This document shows positions 1,134-34,675 of a stretch of 35,730 bases of DNA, piece after piece (position 1 is the stretch's first letter; every line of letters begins with the position of its first letter). The DNA is from an uncultured Candidatus Bathyarchaeia archaeon (GTDB taxonomy: Archaea > Thermoproteota > Bathyarchaeia > TCS64). The translations under genes were made by a program, and so were the position numbers. The notes beneath the pieces are model-generated. The model searched no databases. It saw nothing but the letters and a program-made list of their open reading frames with translations, and was not told the DNA's origin. The stretch lies in the NCBI GenBank assembly GCA_964447425.1, contig CAYUTB010000002.1, forward strand, positions 7,770 through 43,499. The letters are read 5' to 3'.

Positions 1134-2027
1134 ATGGTGGTGAGTAAAATGGAGCCACTATCAGGGATAATCACAGCCCTAGTAACACCATTCACAGAGA
1201 CAGGGGAACTCAAAACTGAGGCGATACAGCCACTTATCGACTTCCAGATAAAAGGCGGAGTAGACGGCTTGTTCCTCTGCGGGACCGCTGGCCTTGGCTC
1301 GGTGATGAGAACCGATCAACGAGTCATGATGTTCAAGGAATCAGCGAAGGCGGCGCGGGGCAGGATCAAGCTCCTCGCACACGTTGGGGCACCCAGCACC
1401 GAGGAAGCAGTCATACTGGCTAGGGCAGCCGAGTCCGCCGGAGTGGATGCCTTGGGCGCTGTTCCACCCTACTTCATGAAGCCTGACGAAGAGAGTATAA
1501 TCAAACACTTCAAGACCATAGCAGAGGCGAGCAAACTACCACTCTACATATACAATATACCCGGTCAGGCAGTGAACTCCGTGACCCCAGCCATGATGCT
1601 CAAACTAGCCCAGATACCCAACATAAGGGGTGTGAAGGATAGTAGCAGAGACTTCATCAACCTACTGAACTACCTGCAGGTCCTGCCCGAGGACTTCACC
1701 GTCATCTGTGGCTCAGACAGTTACATCTACCCAGCCATGGTCATGGGCGCACGGGGAGCCATCACAGGCTACGCCAACGGTTTCCCCGATGTATACTCTG
1801 ATTTCCTCCGTGTAATCCGATCAGGGGATCAGGATGCTGCCAAGCGGAAACAGTTCGAGCTCAATGTACTCCGTGGAAAACTGCAGAAGCCTCCACTGGC
1901 GCCCCACTATGAGGCCTTACAGCTGCGCGGTGTTGACGCCGGTGTCCCACGGGCTCCCCTCAGAGGCATGACTGAGAGAGAACGCGTCGAGTTCAAGGAG
2001 AGCCTTATGAAGCTAGGAGTCCTCTAG
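1134..2027 (+). CDS. DapA/NAL-family class I aldolase, probably KD(P)G aldolase
   Basis: The track ORF 843..2027 has an implausible N-terminal extension antisense to kdgK. The real start is probably ATG 1134 (MVVSKMEPLSG) or ATG 1149. Family motifs: 'ALVTPF', 'GTAG', 'YNIPG', and the Schiff-base lysine context 'GVKDSS'. Confidence 0.8.
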   Translation: MVVSKMEPLSGIITALVTPFTETGELKTEAIQPLIDFQIKGGVDGLFLCGTAGLGSVMRTDQRVMMFKESAKAARGRIKLLAHVGAPSTEEAVILARAAESAGVDALGAVPPYFMKPDEESIIKHFKTIAEASKLPLYIYNIPGQAVNSVTPAMMLKLAQIPNIRGVKDSSRDFINLLNYLQVLPEDFTVICGSDSYIYPAMVMGARGAITGYANGFPDVYSDFLRVIRSGDQDAAKRKQFELNVLRGKLQKPPLAPHYEALQLRGVDAGVPRAPLRGMTERERVEFKESLMKLGVL

Positions 2028-2924
2028 AGACTCTATCTCATCATCGATGACTTTTTCGATATCCTCTAACTTGTCCTTGATCCATTTCTGCAGATTCTCT
2101 ATCTTCTTGACCCGCGCGTTCCACTTGTGGGCATCAATGTTCTCGAGTATCGTCTTCTCAACCATCTCCTGGAGAAGATTGGGGTCCAGAGCATCCAACT
2201 CAACCGAGCTATCACCATGAGTAGCCATGAAGCTCTCCGCACGGGCATCGCTACGCTTCACGGGCATGGGTGGAAGACTGTAATGCCTGATCTGTTCGGC
2301 GGTCAATGCGATGCGCTTCACCTCGAAGTCCTTGGCACCATACCTGCCCAGTCGATCCTCTAGGTCGCGTTCAATATCCACTCCGCTGGGATCAAAGTCC
2401 CCGAAGTAAAGCAATATAGTGGGCTTCCCGTTGAGCCTCGTCTGCATATAGTTAGCCATTATCTGGACATAGCTGAAGCTGGGGTATCCCCGTGTGGGGA
2501 AGGTGCGCACCGAGTACTGGTTCGCGACCCTGCTCACCAGCCTGCTCAGGGCATCCTTCTCGAGGCTAATCAAAAGATAGACAGGCTGCTCCTCCCACAT
2601 GAGCATAGTGAAGCCCTTCCAGCTATCCTGTAGACCGCTCAGCTTCTGCTTCAGATACTCCTCAGCCGAGTCATAACCCGTATCACCCCTGCCCAGTATA
2701 CGCCTGCTACGATCCTCAAGACAGTTAACGGGAACAGCCTCCTCTTCCCTTGCCTTGACCATTATCCTGCTGAGCCGCTTGTAGCTGTTGACTGTGTTTG
2801 GGATGAGAAGCCGAGACACCAGACGGTAATACAGCTGACGCAGCGTTATCGCTGTATCGTATTGGTCAAAGACCTCAAGGGCAGCAACTACGATCCTATC
2901 ATAGCTGGGGGGTCTCCCGCTCAT
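2013..2924 (-). CDS. Spo11/Topo VI subunit A-like protein (5Y-CAP + Toprim), short 'mini-A'-like form
   Basis: 303 aa. 'TLRQLYYRLV' matches the R-x3-Y catalytic-tyrosine motif of Top6A/Spo11 (R29, Y33). Toprim elements are 'LLISLEKDA' (E122), 'TRGYPS', 'YFGDFDPSGVDI' (D176xD178) and 'VELDAL'. The C-terminal tail is acidic and coiled-coil-like. No GHKL B subunit lies nearby. Confidence 0.7.
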   Translation of the reverse strand: MSGRPPSYDRIVVAALEVFDQYDTAITLRQLYYRLVSRLLIPNTVNSYKRLSRIMVKAREEEAVPVNCLEDRSRRILGRGDTGYDSAEEYLKQKLSGLQDSWKGFTMLMWEEQPVYLLISLEKDALSRLVSRVANQYSVRTFPTRGYPSFSYVQIMANYMQTRLNGKPTILLYFGDFDPSGVDIERDLEDRLGRYGAKDFEVKRIALTAEQIRHYSLPPMPVKRSDARAESFMATHGDSSVELDALDPNLLQEMVEKTILENIDAHKWNARVKKIENLQKWIKDKLEDIEKVIDDEIESLEDS

Positions 2925-3152
2925 TACAAAAACATATGTTGACTGAATATTATCTAGTTTTCCAATTAATAAGCGAATTCTGAGGATTCTTCTTTTAAAA
3001 ACAGATCTATTGTTTTCTGCATTTTTCTACAAGCGCTCATGCCGCCTCTAGCCTTTGTAAAATACTCAGAAAAATCGCAGTTCGATAATTATTATCCGGA
3101 TCATATAGAGTAAGGTTTTTAATCGATATCGCTTGAAAGTCATAGACTAACA

Positions 3153-3428
3153 ATGTCATTGAAAAAAGCAACACCTGTTGAGATCATAGACGGTATCAGC
3201 TTCCGTCTCAGGACTGACGCAATCATTGTACTCGAGGGCGTCGAAGCGCCAGACAAGTCAACGCCAGAGGGACAAAAAGCCAAGGCAAAACTAGCTGAGT
3301 TGGTTCTAAAGCAAAAGGTGGAATATGAGACGACCGCATGGACTCCAATGGGTCAGACAAAGGCGAACGTTAACCTCGACGGAGTAGACATAAACGCCGA
3401 GATGAAGAAATTCATCGCTACTCTATAA
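3153..3428 (+). CDS. Small staphylococcal-nuclease (SNase/thermonuclease)-fold-like protein, probably catalytically degenerate
   Basis: 91 aa. By-eye alignment to the SNase core: 'VEIIDGISFRL' vs 'IKAIDGDTVKL', 'LEGVEAPD' vs 'LLLVDTPE', 'EGQKAKAKLAELV' vs 'YGPEASAFTKKMV', 'MGQTKANVNLDGVDINAEM' vs 'YGRGLAYIYADGKMVNEAL'. The positions of catalytic R35 and R87 appear substituted, and the C-terminal helices are missing. Confidence 0.5.
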   Translation: MSLKKATPVEIIDGISFRLRTDAIIVLEGVEAPDKSTPEGQKAKAKLAELVLKQKVEYETTAWTPMGQTKANVNLDGVDINAEMKKFIATL

Positions 3429-3479: not shown

Positions 3480-3517
3480 AATACTACAGGTTCAACATAT
3501 AGTGAATACTACAGGTT
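3480..3517. repeat. Two copies of the 13-bp direct repeat AATACTACAGGTT (3480-3492 and 3505-3517), a candidate operator upstream of the M24 peptidase gene
   Basis: Exact 13-mer repeated with a 25-bp period. The first copy sits in the imperfect inverted repeat CTTGTAGT-TAAT-ACTACAGG. Upstream, TTTTCAACT occurs twice (3434-3442 and 3464-3472). Confidence 0.6.
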
Positions 3518-10842: not shown

Positions 10843-11937
10843 GTGATGATGCTAGCTGAACGAGAGGCCGCCAAGTACCCTTTCCTCAAGGTGGGGCTCA
10901 ACCTCCTTGAGGCACTGGACCTCCAACTGGACGACCTCGCAGGACCCATCTACACAAAAGCAGTGGACAGGGCAAAGGAGCGAGTGATCGAGGCAATAGT
11001 GAAGGGTGAGGTATCAGAGCAGCTAGCCGACCCACAGACAGAGTTACTCAGCTACCCATTAGCAGTCATGTTCGTAACCCTCGTAGGGGAGCAGTTCCTC
11101 AACAGACGCTACGCCCTCAGCGAGGCGGTTAGAGCCTACAATTTACTTCAGAATGAGTATGAGGAGAAGCTACTTCAGATAGCGCGTGATGAGTTCGGCT
11201 GGAATATTCGTCAAGACCCGGAGAGCATCGACGGCGTCATGCATAACCTCAAAGTAGGGTTTCAGGACTATCTCCTGGTCGCTGCGGGTTTCCATGAGGG
11301 TAAATGGAAGCTCGTTAACCGCAAGATGACTAACGGATACGTATCCATAACAGGCGTCGAGGCTTCAAGGCTCATGCAAGTAGAGGTAGAGAAATGGGTC
11401 AACGAACGCGTTGCCACCCCGAGCAGCTTCAAGCTTCCTCAGACGCTTCAGGTTAGGCTCGATGAGATAAAGAAGACCTTCGATGAGAACCGGTCCAAGC
11501 TAGGGGGAAGCGCTTTACCAGCCGAGGTTATGAATGAGGCGTTCCCACCCTGCATCAACTACTGTCTTGAGGGGCTGCTTGCGGGTCGCCGCGCCAGCCA
11601 CATGGAGCGGTTCGCGTTGACAAGTTTCCTTGTGAATATCGGTATGCCTCTGGATCAGATGGTGAGTTTCTATACCAGTGTGACTGACTTCGATGAGTCA
11701 TTAACCCGGTACCAGATCGAGCACATTGCCGGTATGAAGGGCAACAGGACCAAGTACACTCCTCCCACCTGTAACACTCTTCGCACTCATGGTGTCTGCA
11801 GAAACCCTGACAGTGTTTGTAAGAGCGTAGTTCATCCTCTAAGTTATTACAGGAAAAAGGCGAGGCTTATTCTGAAGCGTGAGGAAGAGAAAGCAGGCGA
11901 GGAAGCTGAATCCTTAAAAACAGCAACAGAAGAATAA
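10843..11937 (+). CDS. priL: DNA primase large (regulatory) subunit PriL
   Basis: 364 aa with the Fe-S domain region 'FPPCINYCLEGLLAGRRASHMERFALTSFLVNIGMPLDQMVSFY...TPPTCNTLRTHGVCRNPDSVC'. Possible starts are GTG 10843 and ATG 10846 or 10849. Confidence 0.9.
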   Translation: MMMLAEREAAKYPFLKVGLNLLEALDLQLDDLAGPIYTKAVDRAKERVIEAIVKGEVSEQLADPQTELLSYPLAVMFVTLVGEQFLNRRYALSEAVRAYNLLQNEYEEKLLQIARDEFGWNIRQDPESIDGVMHNLKVGFQDYLLVAAGFHEGKWKLVNRKMTNGYVSITGVEASRLMQVEVEKWVNERVATPSSFKLPQTLQVRLDEIKKTFDENRSKLGGSALPAEVMNEAFPPCINYCLEGLLAGRRASHMERFALTSFLVNIGMPLDQMVSFYTSVTDFDESLTRYQIEHIAGMKGNRTKYTPPTCNTLRTHGVCRNPDSVCKSVVHPLSYYRKKARLILKREEEKAGEEAESLKTATEE

Positions 11938-12081
11938 ATGGAAATGGAGCCGCCGACCGAGGAACGTAAGCAGAAACTCAAGGAAGTGGGTCTGCACTAC
12001 TGCAAACACTACGATAACATCGTTAGATACAATAAGCCAGCCTGCGGAAAATGCAGCCACGCCACATACCCGATCCGGTAA
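11938..12081 (+). CDS. Small Cys/His-containing protein (47 aa), possible zinc ribbon
   Basis: Not in the track. The ATG immediately follows the PriL TAA. Translation: 'MEMEPPTEERKQKLKEVGLHYCKHYDNIVRYNKPACGKCSHATYPIR*' (C-x-H ... C-x2-C-x-H). Coding status is unproven. Confidence 0.4.
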   Translation: MEMEPPTEERKQKLKEVGLHYCKHYDNIVRYNKPACGKCSHATYPIR

Positions 12082-12085
12082 CCAG

Positions 12086-12093
12086 ATTTATAC
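12086..12093 (+). promoter_or_regulatory. TATA-like box (ATTTATAC) positioned for a leaderless priS transcript
   Basis: The box is centred about 26-27 bp upstream of the priS ATG at 12117, which is the canonical archaeal TATA-to-TSS distance. Confidence 0.35.
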
Positions 12094-12116
12094 CCCCATA
12101 ACCTAGATGAAGTATT

Positions 12117-13346
12117 ATGGAAGAGCCGTGGGGAAGCCCTGATTTCGTAGCGGAACAGTTCCAGAGCTGGTACCGCCAAAACAGCGCCACCATTCCACCC
12201 CCGATCGCGATAGAGAAAAGGGAGTTCGCCTTCATCACATTCCACGGCAAGGGCATGCACAGACACATAGCATTACCCACAGAACCAGAGCTTCAAAGAT
12301 ACCTCAGAAACAACGCCCCGATGCACGCCTACCACAGCAGCAGCTATTATCTCAGCCCCACAGCGGACATGAGCCAGAAGGGGTGGCTTGGCGCAGACCT
12401 CGTATTCGACATCGACGCAGACCACTTTGATCTCCCCTGCCAGCGGGAACATGACCGTTGGTGGTGCAGAAACTGTGACCAGCAGGGAACAGGGCACCCA
12501 CCCGAGATATGCAGTTGCGGTAAAGCCCAGTTCACCACCGAGACGTGGCTCTGTGAAAAATGTCTTCAAGCAGCCAAATTTGAGACCCAGAAGCTGCTGG
12601 ATATACTGATAACCGACTTCGGCGTGAAGATCGAGGACCTCATCACAAACTTCAGCGGAAACAGAGGATACCACGTACACGTCCACAGCGACGGCTTCAA
12701 GTCACTGGACCAGAACAGCCGACGAGAAATAGTGGACTACATCATGGCCACCGGGCTGGAGGCAGAGTACCAAGGCTTCAGCAGGCGAAACATTGGGGCG
12801 CGAAGCACATTCGCCGAGGATGGGTGGCGGGGGCGAACCGGGCGCGCCATATACGATTACCTGAGCACGGCGTCCGAGGCTGAGATCAGGGCGTTAAAGC
12901 TGGGTAGAAACGCTACATCAAACATAGTGAACAACAAAGATAACATACTGGACACACTGGTCACAAAGCACCCCAGCAACGTCATCCCACTCATCGACCC
13001 CAAGAGCCTCGAAACACTCCTAGCGCAGGCAGTAAAGCTACAGGCCTCAGAGATCGACACCGTGGTTACCACAGATATCCACCGCCTCATCAGGATGCCA
13101 AAAACCCTTCACGGCAAAACAGGGTGGCAGGTCCAGACAATACCCTATGGACAGCTACCTAACTATGACCCGCTGAAGAAGGCGGTCATCATCCGAGGCG
13201 ACCCAGTTGAACTAGTGTTCCGTCACGTCCCGAAAATCAAAATACTCGACACATTGTATGGTCCATATGAGGAAGAAGAAGCCACACTGCCACTGGAGGC
13301 CGCGCTATTCTTCCTATGCAAACAAGGAGCCAAAGTAAAAAGATGA
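12117..13346 (+). CDS. priS: DNA primase small (catalytic) subunit PriS
   Basis: 409 aa. Catalytic 'LVFDIDADHF' (DxD), zinc motif 'CRNCDQQ...CSCGK...CEKC', and 'NFSGNRGYHVHV'. Confidence 0.95.
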   Translation: MEEPWGSPDFVAEQFQSWYRQNSATIPPPIAIEKREFAFITFHGKGMHRHIALPTEPELQRYLRNNAPMHAYHSSSYYLSPTADMSQKGWLGADLVFDIDADHFDLPCQREHDRWWCRNCDQQGTGHPPEICSCGKAQFTTETWLCEKCLQAAKFETQKLLDILITDFGVKIEDLITNFSGNRGYHVHVHSDGFKSLDQNSRREIVDYIMATGLEAEYQGFSRRNIGARSTFAEDGWRGRTGRAIYDYLSTASEAEIRALKLGRNATSNIVNNKDNILDTLVTKHPSNVIPLIDPKSLETLLAQAVKLQASEIDTVVTTDIHRLIRMPKTLHGKTGWQVQTIPYGQLPNYDPLKKAVIIRGDPVELVFRHVPKIKILDTLYGPYEEEEATLPLEAALFFLCKQGAKVKR

Positions 13347-13945
13347 GAACCAGATACACCCGACTCCATGAGGCATGGGACAACGAGATAAAACGGGAAG
13401 AACTCCAAAACATACCCGATGGCTTCCTCCACGAGATGAAAAACTACACAAACCAGCTCAACAAGACCCCGGCAAACACTGGGACCCTCTCGGGGAACCT
13501 AACCCAGACCGAACGAAAATACGCCAATCAGATGCTAAAAGAGTTGAGCGAGACCCGGCTCAACAAGATAATAAGAAGCGAGCTCAACGGCCTCGCTATA
13601 AACGCGCAGGCCATGACCCCCGAGGAGCAGCAGCTACACAGTAACCTACGCCAACTACTCACAGGGTACAGGCAGGGCGCCGAACTACCTGTTTCAAGAT
13701 CCAGTAAACCAGAGTCTCACCCCGCTGTAACAAAAAAAGAGTCACCGCCTCCTCCACCCAAGATCGAGGTAAGAGACACTGAGCTTGTGCTCGTCAGGTT
13801 CCTGCAGTCCCTTCCCGCCATAATGGGAATTGATATGAAGGCATATGGGCCATTCCAGCCAGAGGAATTAGCTACGATCCCGCGTCAGAACGCTGAGAAC
13901 CTCATTAAACGGGGTATCGCGAAAAAAGTCGAGACCGATGCGTAA
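13343..13945 (+). CDS. GINS subunit, Gins51 (Gins15) type
   Basis: ATGA overlap with the priS stop. The pattern 'LHEAWDNEIKREELQNIPDGFLHEM...ETRLNKIIRSEL...MTPEEQQLHSNL' matches the archaeal Gins51 A-domain by eye. A Pro-rich linker and a C-terminal B-domain follow. priS-gins51 adjacency is a known archaeal arrangement. Confidence 0.75.
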   Translation: MRTRYTRLHEAWDNEIKREELQNIPDGFLHEMKNYTNQLNKTPANTGTLSGNLTQTERKYANQMLKELSETRLNKIIRSELNGLAINAQAMTPEEQQLHSNLRQLLTGYRQGAELPVSRSSKPESHPAVTKKESPPPPPKIEVRDTELVLVRFLQSLPAIMGIDMKAYGPFQPEELATIPRQNAENLIKRGIAKKVETDA

Positions 13946-14522: not shown

Positions 14523-15314
14523 ATGGTTCTAGGACTACCAGAATGGCCTGAAGTTGGCTACCTAGTAATAGCCACTGTGAAACGTGTGGAGTCCTACGGT
14601 GGTTATGTTAGTTTAGATGAATTTGAAAACAAAGAAGGTCTTCTGCATATCAGTGAGATTAGCAGCAGATGGGTGCGAAACATCAGAAACCACGTAAGAC
14701 CAGGCCAAAAACTAGTCCTACAAGTACTCAGAACCGACCCAAGCAAAGAACAAGTAGATCTCAGCCTCAGAAGAGTAACAAAGGACGATAAACGCAAGAA
14801 ACTCGAGGAATGGAAAAAGGCGAGAAAAGCCGAGACCCTGGTTACACAGGCAGCCAACGAGTTGAATATTGATCTAAATCAGCTCTATGAGACCGAGATA
14901 ATAAAGATCGTAGATAGCTTTGGTAGCCTCTATGAGGGTCTTGAGGCTGCTTCAAAGAAGGGTTCTGTGGCACTTATCGAGGTGGGTCTAAGCGAGAACG
15001 TAGCCCAGACTCTTACAGAGGTGTCTAAGGATAAGATCATCATAAAGGGCGTTACAGTGCAGGGTGTCATTGAGATGACTAGCCTCAACAGTGAGGGCGT
15101 CGAGGATATTAAGATGGCTTTCGTTGAAGCTGCTGGGGTAGCTGAAGGTTTTGATTCGACTATCAATGTCTCGACCATGGGTGCCCCCAAGTACCGTATC
15201 GAGCTTATGGCCGAGGATTACAAAAAAGCGGAGCTTGCCCTAGACAAGACAGTATCCAGCATAAGGGATAACTGGGAAAAGGTTGAAGGCAACTTCAACT
15301 TTACGAGGGAATAA
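14523..15314 (+). CDS. Translation initiation factor aIF2 subunit alpha
   Basis: 263 aa. N-terminal S1 domain 'VIATVKRVESYGGYVSLDEFENKEGLLHISEISSRWVRNIRNHVRPGQK', plus the helical and alpha-beta domains. Confidence 0.95.
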   Translation: MVLGLPEWPEVGYLVIATVKRVESYGGYVSLDEFENKEGLLHISEISSRWVRNIRNHVRPGQKLVLQVLRTDPSKEQVDLSLRRVTKDDKRKKLEEWKKARKAETLVTQAANELNIDLNQLYETEIIKIVDSFGSLYEGLEAASKKGSVALIEVGLSENVAQTLTEVSKDKIIIKGVTVQGVIEMTSLNSEGVEDIKMAFVEAAGVAEGFDSTINVSTMGAPKYRIELMAEDYKKAELALDKTVSSIRDNWEKVEGNFNFTRE

Positions 15315-23371: not shown

Positions 23372-24949
23372 ATGACCTTTGATATCCTGATTAAGAAGGG
23401 TAAAATTATTGATGGGACCGGGAACGCCTGGTACAAGTCTGATATAGCTGTAGAAGATGGAAAGATAGCAGCCATTGGATCTAATTTAGGCGGGGCGGAC
23501 AAGGTTATCGATGCAAAGGGGCACATAGTAGCCCCGGGCTTCATCGATATCCACAGCCACAGCGACATACCATTACTCATCGACCCCCGGGGGATGAGCA
23601 AGATCACTCAGGGCGTGACCACCGAGGTGATAGGAAACTGCGGGCTGAGCGCTGCCCCCATGAACCAGTGGCTGCAAGAGTATCGGAACAGGTACGCTCG
23701 TGCTCAGCTTAGTGAGGGATTCAGCTATAACTGGACCGATATGAGTTCATATTTGGAGAAGCTTATGGAGAGAGGCGTAGCACTCAACGTGGCGCCTCTT
23801 GCTGGGCATGGAACTATCCGTCAATGCGTTATGGGGGACGTTGACCAGTTGCCAACCTTCTCGATGCTTAATGAGATGAAGAAGCTTCTCAGGGACTCCC
23901 TTGATCAAGGCGCATGGGGCTTGAGCACCGGTTTAATCTACACACCGAACCAGTACTCTTCAACAGAGGAGATTATCGAGCTAGCCAGGGAACTGCCAGC
24001 CTACGATGCGTTATACGCTACTCACATCAGGGGGGAGGGAAACACGGTGATTCAAGCTATCGATGAAGCCAATAGGATAGGCAGAGAGGCGGGGGTGAGG
24101 GTGCAGATCAGCCACTTCAAGGTATGTGGGTCTAATAACTGGGGGAAATCCAAGGATACACTGCAGATGGTTATAGATGCCAGAGCTAATGGCGTGGACG
24201 TGGATTTTGACCAGTATCCGTATACTGCATCAAGCACTGGGCTCTCAGCTATACTGCCCCCGTGGGTTCACGATGGCGGTATTGAGAAACTAATCGCGAG
24301 GCTTAAGGACCCAGAGACAAGGGCGCTGATCAGGGGTCAGCCAACGGAGGAGATGGAGGACTGGAGCCGTATCCAGGTTGTGCATACCCGTAACCACCCT
24401 GAGTACATCGGCTTATCAGTTGACCAGATCGCCTCAAGGATGGGTGTTGATCCATTTGACGCCATGTGTGATCTCCTCATTGCGGAGGACTCACAGGTTT
24501 TGGTGGTACTGTTTGAGATGGAGGAAATGGATGTCCGCAGGATAATGGGTAGTCCTCTTGGTATGGTGGGCAGCGATGGAAGAGCCGTCGCCTCAGACAG
24601 TGTATTCAATGAGGGCAAATGTCACCCTAGATACTATGGTACATTCCCAAGGGTTCTCGGCTACTATGTCCGGGAGGGGGTGATTAATCTGCAGGAGGCT
24701 GTGCGTAAGATGACCAGTGCACCCGCGAGGAGACTGGGGATCAGAGATCGGGGGCTCCTCATTGAGGGAATGAAGGCAGATATCACCCTCTTTAACCCCG
24801 AAAAAGTCAAGGACAACGCAACCTTCACTGACCCACACAGATACTCATCAGGCATCCCATATGTGCTGGTAAACGGAGAACCCGTGATAAGCAAGAGCAA
24901 ATACACAGGTGCTTTACCCGGCATGGTGCTGAGAAAAACCCTCTCTTAA
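23372..24949 (+). CDS. D-aminoacylase (N-acyl-D-amino-acid deacylase) family amidohydrolase, copy 1
   Basis: 525 aa. Motifs: 'PGFIDIHSHSD' (HxH), 'TEVIGNCG' (Cys ligand), 'ATHIRGEG', 'QISHFK', 'VGSDG', 'YGTFPRVLGYYVRE'. Confidence 0.85.
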   Translation: MTFDILIKKGKIIDGTGNAWYKSDIAVEDGKIAAIGSNLGGADKVIDAKGHIVAPGFIDIHSHSDIPLLIDPRGMSKITQGVTTEVIGNCGLSAAPMNQWLQEYRNRYARAQLSEGFSYNWTDMSSYLEKLMERGVALNVAPLAGHGTIRQCVMGDVDQLPTFSMLNEMKKLLRDSLDQGAWGLSTGLIYTPNQYSSTEEIIELARELPAYDALYATHIRGEGNTVIQAIDEANRIGREAGVRVQISHFKVCGSNNWGKSKDTLQMVIDARANGVDVDFDQYPYTASSTGLSAILPPWVHDGGIEKLIARLKDPETRALIRGQPTEEMEDWSRIQVVHTRNHPEYIGLSVDQIASRMGVDPFDAMCDLLIAEDSQVLVVLFEMEEMDVRRIMGSPLGMVGSDGRAVASDSVFNEGKCHPRYYGTFPRVLGYYVREGVINLQEAVRKMTSAPARRLGIRDRGLLIEGMKADITLFNPEKVKDNATFTDPHRYSSGIPYVLVNGEPVISKSKYTGALPGMVLRKTLS

Positions 24950-24990: not shown

Positions 24991-26559
24991 GTGGAATACG
25001 ATTACGTAATAAAGAATGGAAAAATACTTGATGGAACCGGAAACCCGTGGTTCTACGCTGATGTAGGGATCGATGAGGGCATTATCAGGAAGATAGGCAG
25101 GATCGATGAGAGACCAGAGGCAGTGATAGACGCCAAAGGGTACATTATCTCCCCGGGATTCATTGACATTCACAGCCACAGCGACCTACCGATAGTTATT
25201 GACCCGCTTGCCCAGAGCAAGATCAGACAAGGAGTCACCACAGAGGTAATTGGGCAGTGCGGAAACTCAGCTGCACCTATGAACGAGGAAGTGAAAGAGT
25301 ACCGTAAAAAGTACAATAGTAGCAGAGTGCCTGAAGGCTTCGAGTACAACTGGAGCACCATGAAGAGCTACCTTGACCTCCTTGAGAGACATGGAGTAGC
25401 TGTGAACATCGCCCCTGTTGTTGGGCACGGCACTGTCCGCCAGAACGTGATGGGCTACGAGAACAGAGAGCCAACTGAGAGCGAATTAGAGGATATGCGT
25501 AAACTGGTAAGAGAAGCAATGATGGATGGAGCCTGGGGGATGAGCACAGGGCTCATCTATCCGCCCAGCGTCTACGGAAAACAGCCCGAGATAACAGAAC
25601 TCACCAAGGTGGTCGCTGAGTATGATGGGGTCTACTTCAGCCACATCAGGGGAGAAGGTGATACCCTCATGGATGCAGTCACAGAGGCATGCGAGATAGG
25701 GAAAGACAGTGGAGCCCCCGTTCAGATAGCCCACTTCAAGGCAAGTGGGAGAGCAAGCTGGGGAAAAACAGTTGATAGCTTGGCGCTAGTCGAGAAGTAT
25801 AGGCAAATGGGTGTGGATGTCACTTTTGACCAGTATCCGTATATTGCCTCTAGCACGAATCTCACCGCGTTGCTCCCACACTGGAGCCAAGAGGGAGGCG
25901 CAGCGAGACTCCTAGAATACCTGAATGATCCCTCGATGCGTGAGAAACTGAAGAACGATATGAGGCTCAGATACGATTGGAGCGAGATACTGGTAACCAG
26001 CGCCGAGAAAAATCCCCAATACAACGGCAAGAACATGGAGGAGGTAGCAGCAATGATGAACAAGGAGCCCTTCACGGCTTACTTCGACCTACTCGTCATG
26101 GAGAACACTCAGGTCCCCAGTGTCATGTTTGGTATGAGTGAAGAGGATGTGAGACGCGTCATGAAGAGCCCATACATGATGGTTGGAAGCGACGGCTCAG
26201 CCATAAGCCCAACAGGAATATGGGAGAACACAGTACCACACCCAAGACTCTACGGCACATTCCCACGGGTCCTAGGCTACTATGTCAGGGAGGGAGTTCT
26301 GCCACTACCGGAGGCAGTGCGTAAGATGACCAGCGCGCCAGCCCAGAAACTGGGTTTAAGGGATAGAGGAATGCTCAGAGAGGGCTGGGTCGCTGACATC
26401 ACTGTCTTCAACCCCGATACTATACTAGATGTTGCGACATTCACCGACCCACAGCGATACGCTGCAGGAATACACTACGTATTCGTAAACGGTGAGATAG
26501 TCGTCGATAAGGGAGAACATACTGGCGCTCTTCCAGGTAAAGCCTTGAGGAAAAAGTAA
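24991..26559 (+). CDS. D-aminoacylase family amidohydrolase, copy 2 (tandem paralog)
   Basis: 522 aa, GTG start, with the same motif set: 'PGFIDIHSHSD', 'TEVIGQCG', 'SHIRGEG', 'QIAHFK', 'VGSDG', 'YGTFPRVLGYYVRE'. It is diverged from copy 1 by roughly 40% by eye. Confidence 0.85.
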   Translation: MEYDYVIKNGKILDGTGNPWFYADVGIDEGIIRKIGRIDERPEAVIDAKGYIISPGFIDIHSHSDLPIVIDPLAQSKIRQGVTTEVIGQCGNSAAPMNEEVKEYRKKYNSSRVPEGFEYNWSTMKSYLDLLERHGVAVNIAPVVGHGTVRQNVMGYENREPTESELEDMRKLVREAMMDGAWGMSTGLIYPPSVYGKQPEITELTKVVAEYDGVYFSHIRGEGDTLMDAVTEACEIGKDSGAPVQIAHFKASGRASWGKTVDSLALVEKYRQMGVDVTFDQYPYIASSTNLTALLPHWSQEGGAARLLEYLNDPSMREKLKNDMRLRYDWSEILVTSAEKNPQYNGKNMEEVAAMMNKEPFTAYFDLLVMENTQVPSVMFGMSEEDVRRVMKSPYMMVGSDGSAISPTGIWENTVPHPRLYGTFPRVLGYYVREGVLPLPEAVRKMTSAPAQKLGLRDRGMLREGWVADITVFNPDTILDVATFTDPQRYAAGIHYVFVNGEIVVDKGEHTGALPGKALRKK

Positions 26560-32016: not shown

Positions 32017-32060
32017 CGGGAATCTTTTAACAAGCCCTATCCAATTCCTCTTTGAGTGTC

Positions 32061-33086
32061 TTGGGAGTCCTCTTAACACCGCTGATACAGAAAAGGGAGA
32101 TGACCCTAGAGGAACTGCGCGGCAAAAGCTTCGCAGTAGACGGCTTTATAGTGCTCCACGAGTTCTTGGCGCTCATAAGGGATCGACAAGGAGTGCCTCT
32201 TACAGATGAACAGGGGAATATCACGAGCCATCTTGTGGGGCTTGCTTTCAGAACCACTCGCCTTGTCTCGGATTATGATATGAAGCTGGTCTTTGTATTT
32301 GACGGTAAGCCCCCTTCATTAAAACGGGAAGAGATCACAAAGAGGAAGGCGACGCGTAGGAAAGCAGAGGAAGAGTACAGAGAAGCATTGGATCGGGGAG
32401 ACATGCAGGAAGCCTTCAGCAAGGCAGTTATGACGGGGCGACTCACAAAACAGGGGCTAGATGACGCGAAGCATCTGCTGGATCTGCTTGGGATTCCTTG
32501 GGTTCAGGCACCCGGCGAAGGGGAGGCTCAGGCAGCGTATATGGCGCAGCGTGGTGATGTCTGGGCTTCCAATAGCAAGGACTATGACTCGTTGCTATTC
32601 GGTGCACCGCGGCTAGTCCGTTTCCTTAGCATAAATAGTCAGGAGTGGCTGCCCAGTAAGGGTAGGGCGAGGCAGGTGCTTCCTGAGTTGATCGATTTGG
32701 AATATTTTCTTGGTCATTATGAAATCACTCGTCCTCAGTTGATCGATATGGGGATACTGATAGGCACAGACTTTAACCCCGGTGTCAAGGGAATAGGGCC
32801 AAAGACGGCGTTGAAGCTCATAAAGAAGCATGGGAGATTGGAGAATCTCCCAGATGATATCCGGGAAAAGCTTCCTGATACAGTTGATGAGATTAGAGAT
32901 TACTTCATGAATCCCCCAGTAACTGGAGAGTACAGTGTTGAACGTGGGGAGTTACAGGAAGACGCATTGGATGATTTTCTCTGCGGGGAGAAAAACTTCT
33001 CAACCCGCCGAGTCCAGACCCTCATAAACAGGATGAGAAACAGAGCCGCTCAGAAATCCCTCAAAGATTACTTCGGAGGCAGCTGA
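32061..33086 (+). CDS. fen: Flap endonuclease 1
   Basis: Strong similarity to archaeal FEN1: 'ITSHLVGL', 'VFVFDGKPP', 'VQAPGEGEAQAAYM', 'SKDYDSLLFGAPRLVR', 'GTDFNPGVKGIGPKTALKLI', and a C-terminal PIP box 'QKSLKDYF'. TTG 32061 yields the conserved MGV N-terminus; the track start at 32052 is also TTG. Confidence 0.95.
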   Translation: MGVLLTPLIQKREMTLEELRGKSFAVDGFIVLHEFLALIRDRQGVPLTDEQGNITSHLVGLAFRTTRLVSDYDMKLVFVFDGKPPSLKREEITKRKATRRKAEEEYREALDRGDMQEAFSKAVMTGRLTKQGLDDAKHLLDLLGIPWVQAPGEGEAQAAYMAQRGDVWASNSKDYDSLLFGAPRLVRFLSINSQEWLPSKGRARQVLPELIDLEYFLGHYEITRPQLIDMGILIGTDFNPGVKGIGPKTALKLIKKHGRLENLPDDIREKLPDTVDEIRDYFMNPPVTGEYSVERGELQEDALDDFLCGEKNFSTRRVQTLINRMRNRAAQKSLKDYFGGS

Positions 33087-34675
33087 TGACCGGCACATCT
33101 TTCAAATTACTTGTGCTGATCTGCAAGGCTCTTGAATCCACTACAAAGCGTAAAGAGAAAACAGCGCTGATAAGCGGCTTTCTAAAAACGCTGAGTAGGG
33201 ATGAGGTGAAGCCCGCTATACTCTTGATCATTGGAGCCGTGTTCCCAGAGACCAGTGACTCGACACTGGATGTAGGCTGGAGAACCCTCAAAAGGGTAAT
33301 AGACAGAAGTGGACAGACCACACTATTCCGGCACCAATTAACAATCACAGAAGTCTACGATACGCTCCAAGAGATAGCCAATGCATCAGGAGAAGGCAGC
33401 AGAAAACACAAGGAACAGCTACTGGAACGCATGTTCGCCCAGACCGAGCCGGATGAATCAGAGATACTTGCACGGATAATATTCGGTGAGATGAGGATCG
33501 GGGTAAACGAGGGGATGATGCTGGAGGGTATAGCTGAATCCACCGGCATGGACCCAGCGCTCGTTCGCAGAGCGCTGATGATGACAGGAGACATCGGCAG
33601 GGTAGCAGAGGAAGCAGTTCAACGGGGTGAAGCTGGACTCATGAGTCTTGAGGCTACCATGTTCGTGCCATTGAAGCCAATGCTTGCGAACACCGCTGAA
33701 TCCCCTGAGGATGCGATTCGTGACTATGGGGGAGAGGCTGCCTTTGAGTACAAGTATGATGGGGCACGGATACAGATACACCGCAAAGGCGACGAGGTGA
33801 GGATATTCAGCAGAAGACTGTCTGATGTCACTGAAAGCATACCCGATATCATAGAGATCGTTAGGGGTTTTCCTGAGAAGGCTGATTTCATTATCGAGGG
33901 TGAGGTGGTGGCTGTAGGTGGTAACCAGCGCCCATTGCCGTTTCAAGATCTGATGAGGCGATTCACGAGGGTCAACGAGGTAGATGAGATGATTAAACAG
34001 ATTCCTTTGAAGCTCTATCTATTCGATGCTCTCTACCATGACGGTTCATTGTTAATCGATGAACCCTACAGCAGCAGATGGAGCGCCTTGGAGAAAATTG
34101 CCCCCAAGGAGTATCTCGCGAAGCGAATTATCACAAGCTGCCCCGAGGAGGCGTTGAGGCTCATGAAGCAAGCCACAGAGGAAGGGCATGAAGGCTTGAT
34201 GGCGAAACGACTCGACAGCACATACAGCCCCGGTTCAAGGGGCAAGAACTGGTACAAGCTCAAACCAGTTGAGACACTTGACGTAGTCGTGGTTGCAGCA
34301 GACTGGGGTAGTGGGCGCAGAAGAGGGTGGCTGAGCAACTACCATCTTGGCGTCTGGAGTGGCGAGGAGTATCTGGTTATAGGTAAGACCTTCAAGGGCT
34401 TGACCGATGATGAGTTCAAGTGGATGACCGAGCATCTTCAAAGCCTCAGGGTCGATGAATCCCAGTACACGGTACACGTTAAACCCGAGCTGGTCGTGGA
34501 GGTTGCTTTCAACGAGATACAGAGGAGCCCACACTACAAGTCAGGGTACGCGTTAAGGTTTGCACGCATAACCCGGATAAGAACAGACAAAGAATACGAG
34601 GAAGCCGATACCCTCGCCCGTGTAGCAGAACTCTATGAGCATCAGTTCGAGTACAAGGACCGCCTAGAGAGGTAA
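33086..34675 (+). CDS. lig: ATP-dependent DNA ligase
   Basis: 529 aa. Adenylation motif 'EYKYDGARIQIH' (KxDG), plus 'EGEVVA', 'LYLFDAL', 'EGLMAK', 'WYKLKP', and an OB domain. The ATG overlaps the FEN1 TGA by 1 nt (TGATG). Confidence 0.95.
   Translation: MTGTSFKLLVLICKALESTTKRKEKTALISGFLKTLSRDEVKPAILLIIGAVFPETSDSTLDVGWRTLKRVIDRSGQTTLFRHQLTITEVYDTLQEIANASGEGSRKHKEQLLERMFAQTEPDESEILARIIFGEMRIGVNEGMMLEGIAESTGMDPALVRRALMMTGDIGRVAEEAVQRGEAGLMSLEATMFVPLKPMLANTAESPEDAIRDYGGEAAFEYKYDGARIQIHRKGDEVRIFSRRLSDVTESIPDIIEIVRGFPEKADFIIEGEVVAVGGNQRPLPFQDLMRRFTRVNEVDEMIKQIPLKLYLFDALYHDGSLLIDEPYSSRWSALEKIAPKEYLAKRIITSCPEEALRLMKQATEEGHEGLMAKRLDSTYSPGSRGKNWYKLKPVETLDVVVVAADWGSGRRRGWLSNYHLGVWSGEEYLVIGKTFKGLTDDEFKWMTEHLQSLRVDESQYTVHVKPELVVEVAFNEIQRSPHYKSGYALRFARITRIRTDKEYEEADTLARVAELYEHQFEYKDRLER

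Follow-up and report, generated by a model that had tools for sequence, protein, structure and literature searches.

The DNA analysed here is a stretch of 35,730 nucleotides from an uncultured Candidatus Bathyarchaeia archaeon (contig CAYUTB010000002.1, positions 7,770 to 43,499; the window from here on), which carries on its minus strand an open reading frame (ORF) of 303 codons encoding a Mini-A protein. Takahashi et al. (2020; PMC7671362) defined Mini-A as a subfamily of type IIB topoisomerase-like proteins, and no branch of the type IIB topoisomerase/Spo11 family is less well understood: neither a B subunit nor an activity is known for Mini-A. Its genes were assigned to free or integrated viruses (PMC7671362) and have been reported from viruses and proviruses exclusively; reviews place Mini-A mainly on mobile elements and treat it as uncharacterised. 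An earlier, sequence-only reading of the window had identified the gene as a 'mini-A' related to Spo11 and Topo VI-A whose catalytic residues are apparently intact, listed its motifs, and pointed to a 15-nt overlap with an aldolase gene and to an AT-rich spacer between it and a divergent gene for a 91-amino-acid protein. Translation of the exact coordinates showed that the ORF and every listed motif are real (Table 1). Likewise, the 3' end of the gene does share 15 nt (2013-2027) with a dihydrodipicolinate synthase (DHDPS)-family aldolase gene (1161..2027, plus strand), an overlap that is identical at the orthologous locus L095, and the spacer is indeed AT-rich when set against the GC content of the window, 0.489.

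Table 1. Features of the Mini-A locus, followed by genes further along the window (AF2, AlphaFold2 model; BRE, TFB recognition element)
Feature	Position	Strand	Basis and remarks
Mini-A gene, 303 aa	2013..2924	-	ORF with ATG start; 5Y-CAP/winged-helix, Toprim and C-terminal helical regions
5Y-CAP/winged-helix region, aa 8-60	2745..2903	-	AF2 helices 8-19, 28-37, 45-60; R29 and predicted catalytic Tyr33
RQLYY (R29..Y33)	2826-2840	-	confirmed by translating exact coordinates
Toprim domain, aa 116-214	2283..2579	-	AF2 secondary structure, invariance, weak DUF2399/JetD Toprim matches
SLEKDA (E122)	2550-2567	-	translation; E122 at end of Toprim strand 1 in AF2 model
GYPS	2478-2489	-	translation
GDFDPSG (D176xD178, G181)	2382-2402	-	translation; DxD after Toprim strand 3 in AF2 model
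T2BI box VELDAL, aa 241-246	2187-2204	-	translation; subfamily-discriminating motif, Mini-A type [V/W]ELDAL
C-terminal helical region, aa 248-303	2016..2183	-	AF2 helices 248-262, 265-302; long terminal helix, acidic tail
Putative archaeal promoter of Mini-A	2946..2963	-	BRE-like GGAAAACT 2956-2963; TATA-like ATAATATT 2946-2953
AT-rich divergent intergenic spacer	2925..3152		228 bp, GC 0.32
91-aa gene, truncated degenerate staphylococcal nuclease fold (OB)	3153..3428	+	ORF; AF2; Foldseek; residue mapping
PriL	10843-11937		
PriS	12117-13346		
GINS51	13316-13945		
aIF2-alpha	14523-15314		
FEN1	32052-33086		
ATP-dependent DNA ligase	33086-34675		

The 303-amino-acid protein aligns from end to end with phrog_6247, annotated 'DNA topoisomerase' (E=3.2e-69), and tblastn detected homologues with 32-37% identity in 78 cultured-phage genomes. 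These include Xylella phages Salvo and Sano, Salmonella phage SPN19, Listeria phage LWP01 and Pseudomonas phages, several of the genes being annotated 'DNA topoisomerase'; Listeria, Salmonella and Pseudomonas are also among the phage hosts in the founding Mini-A paper (PMC7671362). The family as a whole comprises 7353 clusters at 50% identity (E<=1e-3), and nearly all of its best 150 representatives have RQxYYRLV, DxDPSG and [V/W]ELDAL. In an alignment of 90 members that are 30-46% identical, R29, Y33, R59, D71, E122, K123, G146, D176, D178, G181 and E242 are invariant. The T2BI box distinguishes Mini-A (xWELDAL) from Topo VI and from Topo VIII (RVELNAM; PMC7671362) and reads SVELDAL here. Although the published Mini-A box has Trp, V and W variants are both frequent among the 150 representatives and the Val of the window is therefore ordinary.

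As with the published proteins, the product is about 300 residues long, is built of the 5Y-CAP (its C-terminal half) and Toprim modules alone, with no match to a GHKL Pfam domain and with a winged helix and a Toprim domain in the AF2 model, and combines RxxYY (the RxxY/FY pair of the subfamily), the Toprim Glu, DxDxxG and the T2BI box with homology to viral Mini-As. It differs from them in where it is encoded: published Mini-A genes are viral or proviral, whereas this gene lies on no virus, provirus or mobile genetic element (MGE) and belongs to a Bathyarchaeial clade that is chromosomal, to all appearance vertically inherited, and free of viral neighbours. We conclude that the 303-amino-acid protein is securely a Mini-A, as the sequence-only reading had proposed. 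What is new is the context, a constrained chromosomal copy in Bathyarchaeia, and not the architecture, and no new mechanism is revealed.

The relationship to Topo VI-A was apparent from profile and model comparisons. A profile of the 90-member family found M. jannaschii Topo VI-A (1D3Y) in the PDB with E=0.0036, and GDxDPSG of this profile aligned with TDGDPYG (in FTDGDPYG) of 1D3Y. Mini-A 'TLRQiYY' also lines up with 'TLREAYY', in which chain residues 31 and 35 are presumably R99 and Y103, but this stretch is not significant alone. When the AF2 model (pLDDT 71), with its predicted winged helix (aa 8-60) and Toprim domain (aa 116-214), was compared with the PDB by Foldseek, four significant matches were obtained, all of them M. 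mazei Topo VI-A chains (prob 0.98-1.0). A fold search of the viral structures in BFVD gave no information, owing to the moderate quality of the model, an NCBIfam scan gave no useful match, and single-sequence phmmer searches of the PDB with the 303- and 91-amino-acid proteins gave nothing meaningful, the links coming from family profiles only.

It can be seen that Mini-A has the same catalytic architecture as Topo VI-A and Spo11, and it resembles Spo11 in being an A-type module without a co-encoded ATP-driven strand-passage engine. In contrast to Topo VI-A it is ~60-100 residues shorter, is without the N-terminal Top6B-binding part (as judged from PMC7671362 and the AF2 model), has no adjacent top6B, and is not reached by the Pfam Topo VI-A models. 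A canonical Topo VI-A was rejected as an identification: the Pfam models are silent, no GHKL gene was found in the window (among ORFs of at least 150 amino acids) or in L095, and the N-terminal B-binding segment is absent.

In a neighbour-joining (NJ) tree the chromosomal sequences form one clade (200 of 200 bootstraps), which shares no more than 51% identity with any outside sequence and nests among relatives on viral or MGE-like contigs. Mini-A relatives are present on at least 575 IMG/VR contigs, the best being 49% identical, and a scan of IMG/VR with window-specific patterns found no member of the clade; a profile-based protein search for distant named relatives again brought up mostly the Bathyarchaeial clade. 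In locus L009 (48% identity) small ORFs without Pfam matches all run in one direction, together with a ParB-like gene, and L015 (49% identity) has DNA methyltransferase genes on its flanks. We found no published account of a chromosomal Mini-A from Bathyarchaeia. We also observed that L015 (4608-5882), P0220, P0225, P0289, P0294 and P0309 have an apparent N-terminal extension of ~85-130 residues with no Pfam match; relatives with this extension are among those closest to the Bathyarchaeial clade and some are on viral contigs. In L015 the extension could be an ORF-calling artefact arising from an upstream GTG.

The gene order pfkB-DHDPS-MiniA-...-ICMT-Nudix is maintained in L001-L005 and L095. 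Two further contexts, both of them all-housekeeping, were found among orthologues with 65-67% identity: Amidohydro_3, Mini-A, PALP in L006-L008, and Mini-A, NDK-L24e-S28e-L7Ae ... FtsZ-ScpB in L096. Mini-A has no conserved partner gene, and in each of the three chromosomal contexts the downstream neighbour is convergent to it. A BRE/TATA-like element lies 22-39 nt ahead of the Mini-A ATG and is the sole conserved upstream block in an alignment of six orthologous Mini-A loci, its T.ATA core being invariant. Because this block is close to the ATG and the downstream gene is convergent, the arrangement suggests that Mini-A is transcribed monocistronically from its own promoter with a short leader or none. 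Searches around Mini-A for tRNA genes, Rfam RNAs and repeats resembling attachment (att) sites found none, and the window contains no integrase or virion genes; besides the genes of Table 1 it also holds a branched-chain amino-acid ABC transporter and GlnA. GC content at third codon positions is 0.668 for Mini-A, 0.656 for PriS and 0.633 for DHDPS, so that Mini-A is host-like in composition. We conclude that the window is core Bathyarchaeial chromosome.

In all 147 full-length clade members (63-90% identity) the catalytic and family-invariant residues are intact, and 84 of the 303 positions are invariant; together with the invariance across the 90-member alignment this takes the hallmark residues beyond a chance match. 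The ratio of non-synonymous to synonymous substitution (dN/dS) of Mini-A against its orthologues is 0.05-0.09, with dS ranging from 1.3 to saturation. In each genome pair Mini-A has the same dN as its neighbours pfkB, DHDPS and M24, and the gene therefore co-diverges with its host. These values bear on the possibility, raised from the sequence only, that the gene is a relic of an integrated element. On this view it would be what is left of an ancient integrated virus or MGE, decaying or evolving neutrally and of no use to the host. The wider family is borne by viruses and MGEs, and the nearest outgroups are on virus-like contigs. However, purifying selection is strong even with synonymous sites near saturation, the gene has been kept with its catalytic residues in three different housekeeping contexts, its promoter is conserved and its composition host-like, and neither viral neighbours nor an integrase, tRNA or att repeats accompany it. 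We regard a remnant as very improbable.

A domain scan found no GHKL/Top6B domain in any window ORF of at least 150 amino acids, which upholds the earlier statement that the window lacks a GHKL ATPase for ORFs of that size. The absence extends over ~32 kb on the right side of Mini-A in the window, over 10 kb on its left side in the syntenic L095, and to the other two contexts. Mini-A might nevertheless be an ATP-dependent type IIB topoisomerase that works with an ATPase encoded elsewhere, the host Topo VI-B or an undiscovered 'Mini-B', and in the extreme case would be the only Top6A of the organism. Fusions of GHKL ATPases to Mini-A-type A modules, found outside the window, show that such a module is able to work with a B-like ATPase. 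We consider it distinctly improbable, however, as there is no GHKL gene over the distances given above, the AF2 model begins directly with the winged helix, and the protein groups with Mini-A and not with Topo VI-A. That the gene is the organism's only top6A is unlikely, because the protein falls in the Mini-A subfamily and no GHKL gene is nearby.

The fusion proteins are P0296 (715 aa), P0347 (785 aa) and P0354 (773 aa), each of which has an N-terminal GHKL-type ATPase (a weak HATPase_c match) and a C-terminal A module with the Mini-A-type sequences RQIFYRLVS, DHDPxG and WELDAL or WELDSL, not RVELNAM. P0354 groups with one stand-alone Mini-A in the NJ tree, and the three proteins bear on the question of a 'Mini-B'. 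The A module of Topo VIII, a plasmid-borne B-A fusion, is closely related, GHKL-fused proteins giving matches at 37-40% identity, but the protein described here has no ATPase moiety, is not on a plasmid, has VELDAL instead of RVELNAM in its T2BI box, and carries no Arg at +3 after the catalytic Tyr (Y33-R-L-V). Topo VIII was rejected as an identification on the missing ATPase, the box and the +3 position.

A further alternative is that Mini-A is a stand-alone anti-MGE defence nuclease, hydrolysing foreign DNA through its Toprim domain as JetD and MksG do in the Wadjet and MksBEFG systems. JetD/MksG is likewise a Topo VI-A-like Toprim module outside a classical topoisomerase, and viral genes are commonly domesticated for defence. 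Weak similarity was in fact detected: PADLOC returned partial JetD matches to the 303-amino-acid protein (JetD1, E=1e-4), Pfam gave a sub-threshold match to DUF2399, a JetD-type Toprim (E=0.0014), and among the 90 family members 11 matched DUF2399 and two JetD_C. However, the matches to our protein are below curated thresholds and confined to the Toprim core, no JetABC/MksBEF or other defence gene adjoins Mini-A in any of the three contexts, and these neighbourhoods are housekeeping in nature and not defence islands. Moreover, the invariant 5Y-CAP Tyr/Arg pair favours covalent topoisomerase-type chemistry over plain hydrolysis. We consider a defence nuclease improbable. Identification as JetD/MksG itself was rejected, there being no full-length profile match (E>=1e-4, Toprim core only) and no SMC-like or kleisin neighbours.

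The divergent 91-amino-acid protein had been read as an aligned but degenerate staphylococcal nuclease (SNase), and as a possible partner of Mini-A. The Pfam SNase family (PF00565) matches it below the cutoff (E=0.016, score 16.1 against 21), and its orthologues are annotated by JGI as 'endonuclease YncB (thermonuclease family)'. Its AF2 model (pLDDT 83) superposes on staphylococcal nuclease in Foldseek (TMq 0.81, root mean square deviation 2.1 A, 91 columns, prob 1.0), and the core that aligns is the oligonucleotide/oligosaccharide-binding (OB) barrel plus helix, as predicted by eye. Residues were mapped through a profile alignment to SNase and the family alignment. D21 of SNase corresponds to I15 at a variable position from which Asp is lost family-wide, R35 to A23 (a near-invariant Ala), D40 and E43 to E28 and E31 (both positions variable) and T41 to G29 (an invariant Gly), and the C-terminal third of the domain, which holds Y113 and Y115, is missing. 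The suggested loss of the catalytic arginines stands for R35, whose equivalent is missing across the family; R87 is replaced by Q68 in the window but is Arg in distant orthologues, so the second loss is not general. By these alignments and the model the protein is a catalytically degenerate SNase fold. Its gene is nevertheless real and conserved, with 97 homologous clusters, all from Bathyarchaeota, and a dN/dS of 0.05-0.16; the motif SFRLRTD and residues E10, K55, Y58 and E59 are invariant in its family.

The sequence-only reading had offered the two genes as a DNA-cleavage, defence or plasmid-maintenance module. In the window, as in L001, L002 and L095, they are neighbours that diverge from a common AT-rich spacer, and they occur together on several contigs. 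In these closest relatives (Mini-A 85-88% identical), however, the whole neighbourhood is retained along with the pair. In L003-L005 (76-77%) a Cys-rich ORF of 146-148 amino acids takes the place of the 91-aa gene, and in L006-L008 and L096 the latter is absent. Conversely, L010-L014 contain 91-aa orthologues (57-64% identity) with no Mini-A in the retrieved flanks, which reach at most 6 kb per side and less at contig ends. Of these, L011, L013 and L014 have the 91-aa orthologue co-directional with and upstream of a gene for an M24 peptidase, followed in L011 and L013 by ICMT (L014 ends inside the gene that follows the orthologue); L010 and L012 are without the M24-ICMT arrangement. The same order, 91-aa gene, Xaa-Pro-type M24 peptidase and small ICMT/PEMT-like membrane methyltransferase, is seen in the window (3153, 3554 and 4673). 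The number of matching clusters is also very different, 97 for the 91-aa protein and more than 4600 for Mini-A. Since co-occurrence fails in both directions beyond the closest, wholly syntenic relatives, and since the SNase active site is degenerate, we rejected the two-gene module, to which we give almost no credence. We conclude that the 91-aa gene is unrelated to Mini-A and is not its functional partner.

The reading that we favour, with good though not full confidence, is that the gene is a genuine Mini-A fixed in the chromosomes of Bathyarchaeia, vertically inherited and under constraint, which is probably a domesticated viral gene and probably encodes a Tyr- and Mg2+-dependent DNA-cleaving dimer. 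A viral Mini-A would have been taken up and domesticated by the Bathyarchaeial host. The homodimer would bind duplex DNA, and Tyr33, positioned by Arg29, would attack the phosphodiester while Toprim residues Glu122, Asp176 and Asp178 hold Mg2+, so that a 5'-phosphotyrosyl link is formed as in Topo VI-A and Spo11. Because there is no ATPase gate to drive strand passage, the protein would act as a DNA-breaking or nicking-rejoining enzyme, possibly a reversible one, in some host DNA transaction. This chemistry is read from sequence homology. The T2BI Glu has been proposed to regulate access to the Tyr (PMC7671362), and by analogy the invariant Glu242 may do so here. The C-terminal helical region, in which W268 and W281 are invariant within the clade, may serve in dimerisation or interaction. 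In Casjensviridae phages the Mini-A gene stands in an early nucleotide/DNA-metabolism block, a position that fits a role in DNA transactions without deciding it.

Several observations weigh against this reading. The TM scores of the model to Topo VI-A are low (0.29-0.35), for a model that is itself only moderate (pLDDT 71). The Pfam profiles TP6A_N (PF04406) and TOP6A-Spo11_Toprim (PF21180) do not match the protein above the gathering score and find only 1 and 3 of the 90 family members, weakly; the relationship to Topo VI-A is a remote one. Biochemical activity is known for no Mini-A (PMC7671362 and review), which leaves the chemistry to homology alone, and Mini-A may have an unlinked protein partner. 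The scan of genome contigs recovered only five species representatives, its patterns being specific to close relatives. Outside the syntenic set, the case for vertical inheritance is drawn from the monophyly of the clade and its housekeeping contexts rather than from a reconciliation of trees.

A bolder version of the favoured reading, that the captured viral Mini-A became a cellular, ATPase-independent Spo11-like breaker, for example making programmed breaks for recombination or repair or resolving chromosome topology, is speculative and, in our view, unlikely. If true, it would provide a prokaryotic parallel to the recruitment of the Topo VI-A module as Spo11 in eukaryotes and would for the first time allow the function of a Mini-A to be studied in a cellular context. 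More generally, a lineage-wide chromosomal copy under strong constraint implies that an A module on its own, with no ATPase linked to it, can be kept for a function in the cell. The conserved host orthologues with their invariant catalytic set are targets for the biochemistry of an A-only type IIB enzyme, and they bear on the traffic of A-type cleavage modules between viruses and cells that has been proposed as an origin scenario for Topo VI, Topo VIII and Spo11.

A number of other features of these loci were noted. On the plus strand of the window a mechanically called ORF of 394 codons (843-2027) consists of the DHDPS-family gene and ~106 upstream codons that run over the opposite-strand pfkB; the long form is probably unreal, as the Pfam domain begins at the Met at 1161. 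The replication genes of the window fall into two clusters, PriL-PriS-GINS51 (10843-13945) and FEN1-DNA ligase (32052-34675), and the AT skew of the coding strand is unusually high (~0.3) at 12-15 kb. Tandem Amidohydro_3 paralogues are present at 23372-24949 (525 aa) and 24991-26559 (522 aa); an Amidohydro_3 gene is also found upstream of Mini-A in L006-L008, a shared presence that is probably coincidental. The conserved Cys-rich ORFs of L003 (5367-5813), L004 (4991-5431) and L005 (5497-5937) are co-directional with Mini-A and contain the motifs CGITCG.CDLG, CAGC and CN.C. Finally, oligo-T runs directly follow the stop codon of the 91-aa gene and precede a perfect 13-nt direct repeat, AATACTACAGGTT, at 3480-3492 and 3505-3517 (spacing 25 nt), which lies between the 91-aa and M24 peptidase genes and could be an operator of the M24-ICMT unit.

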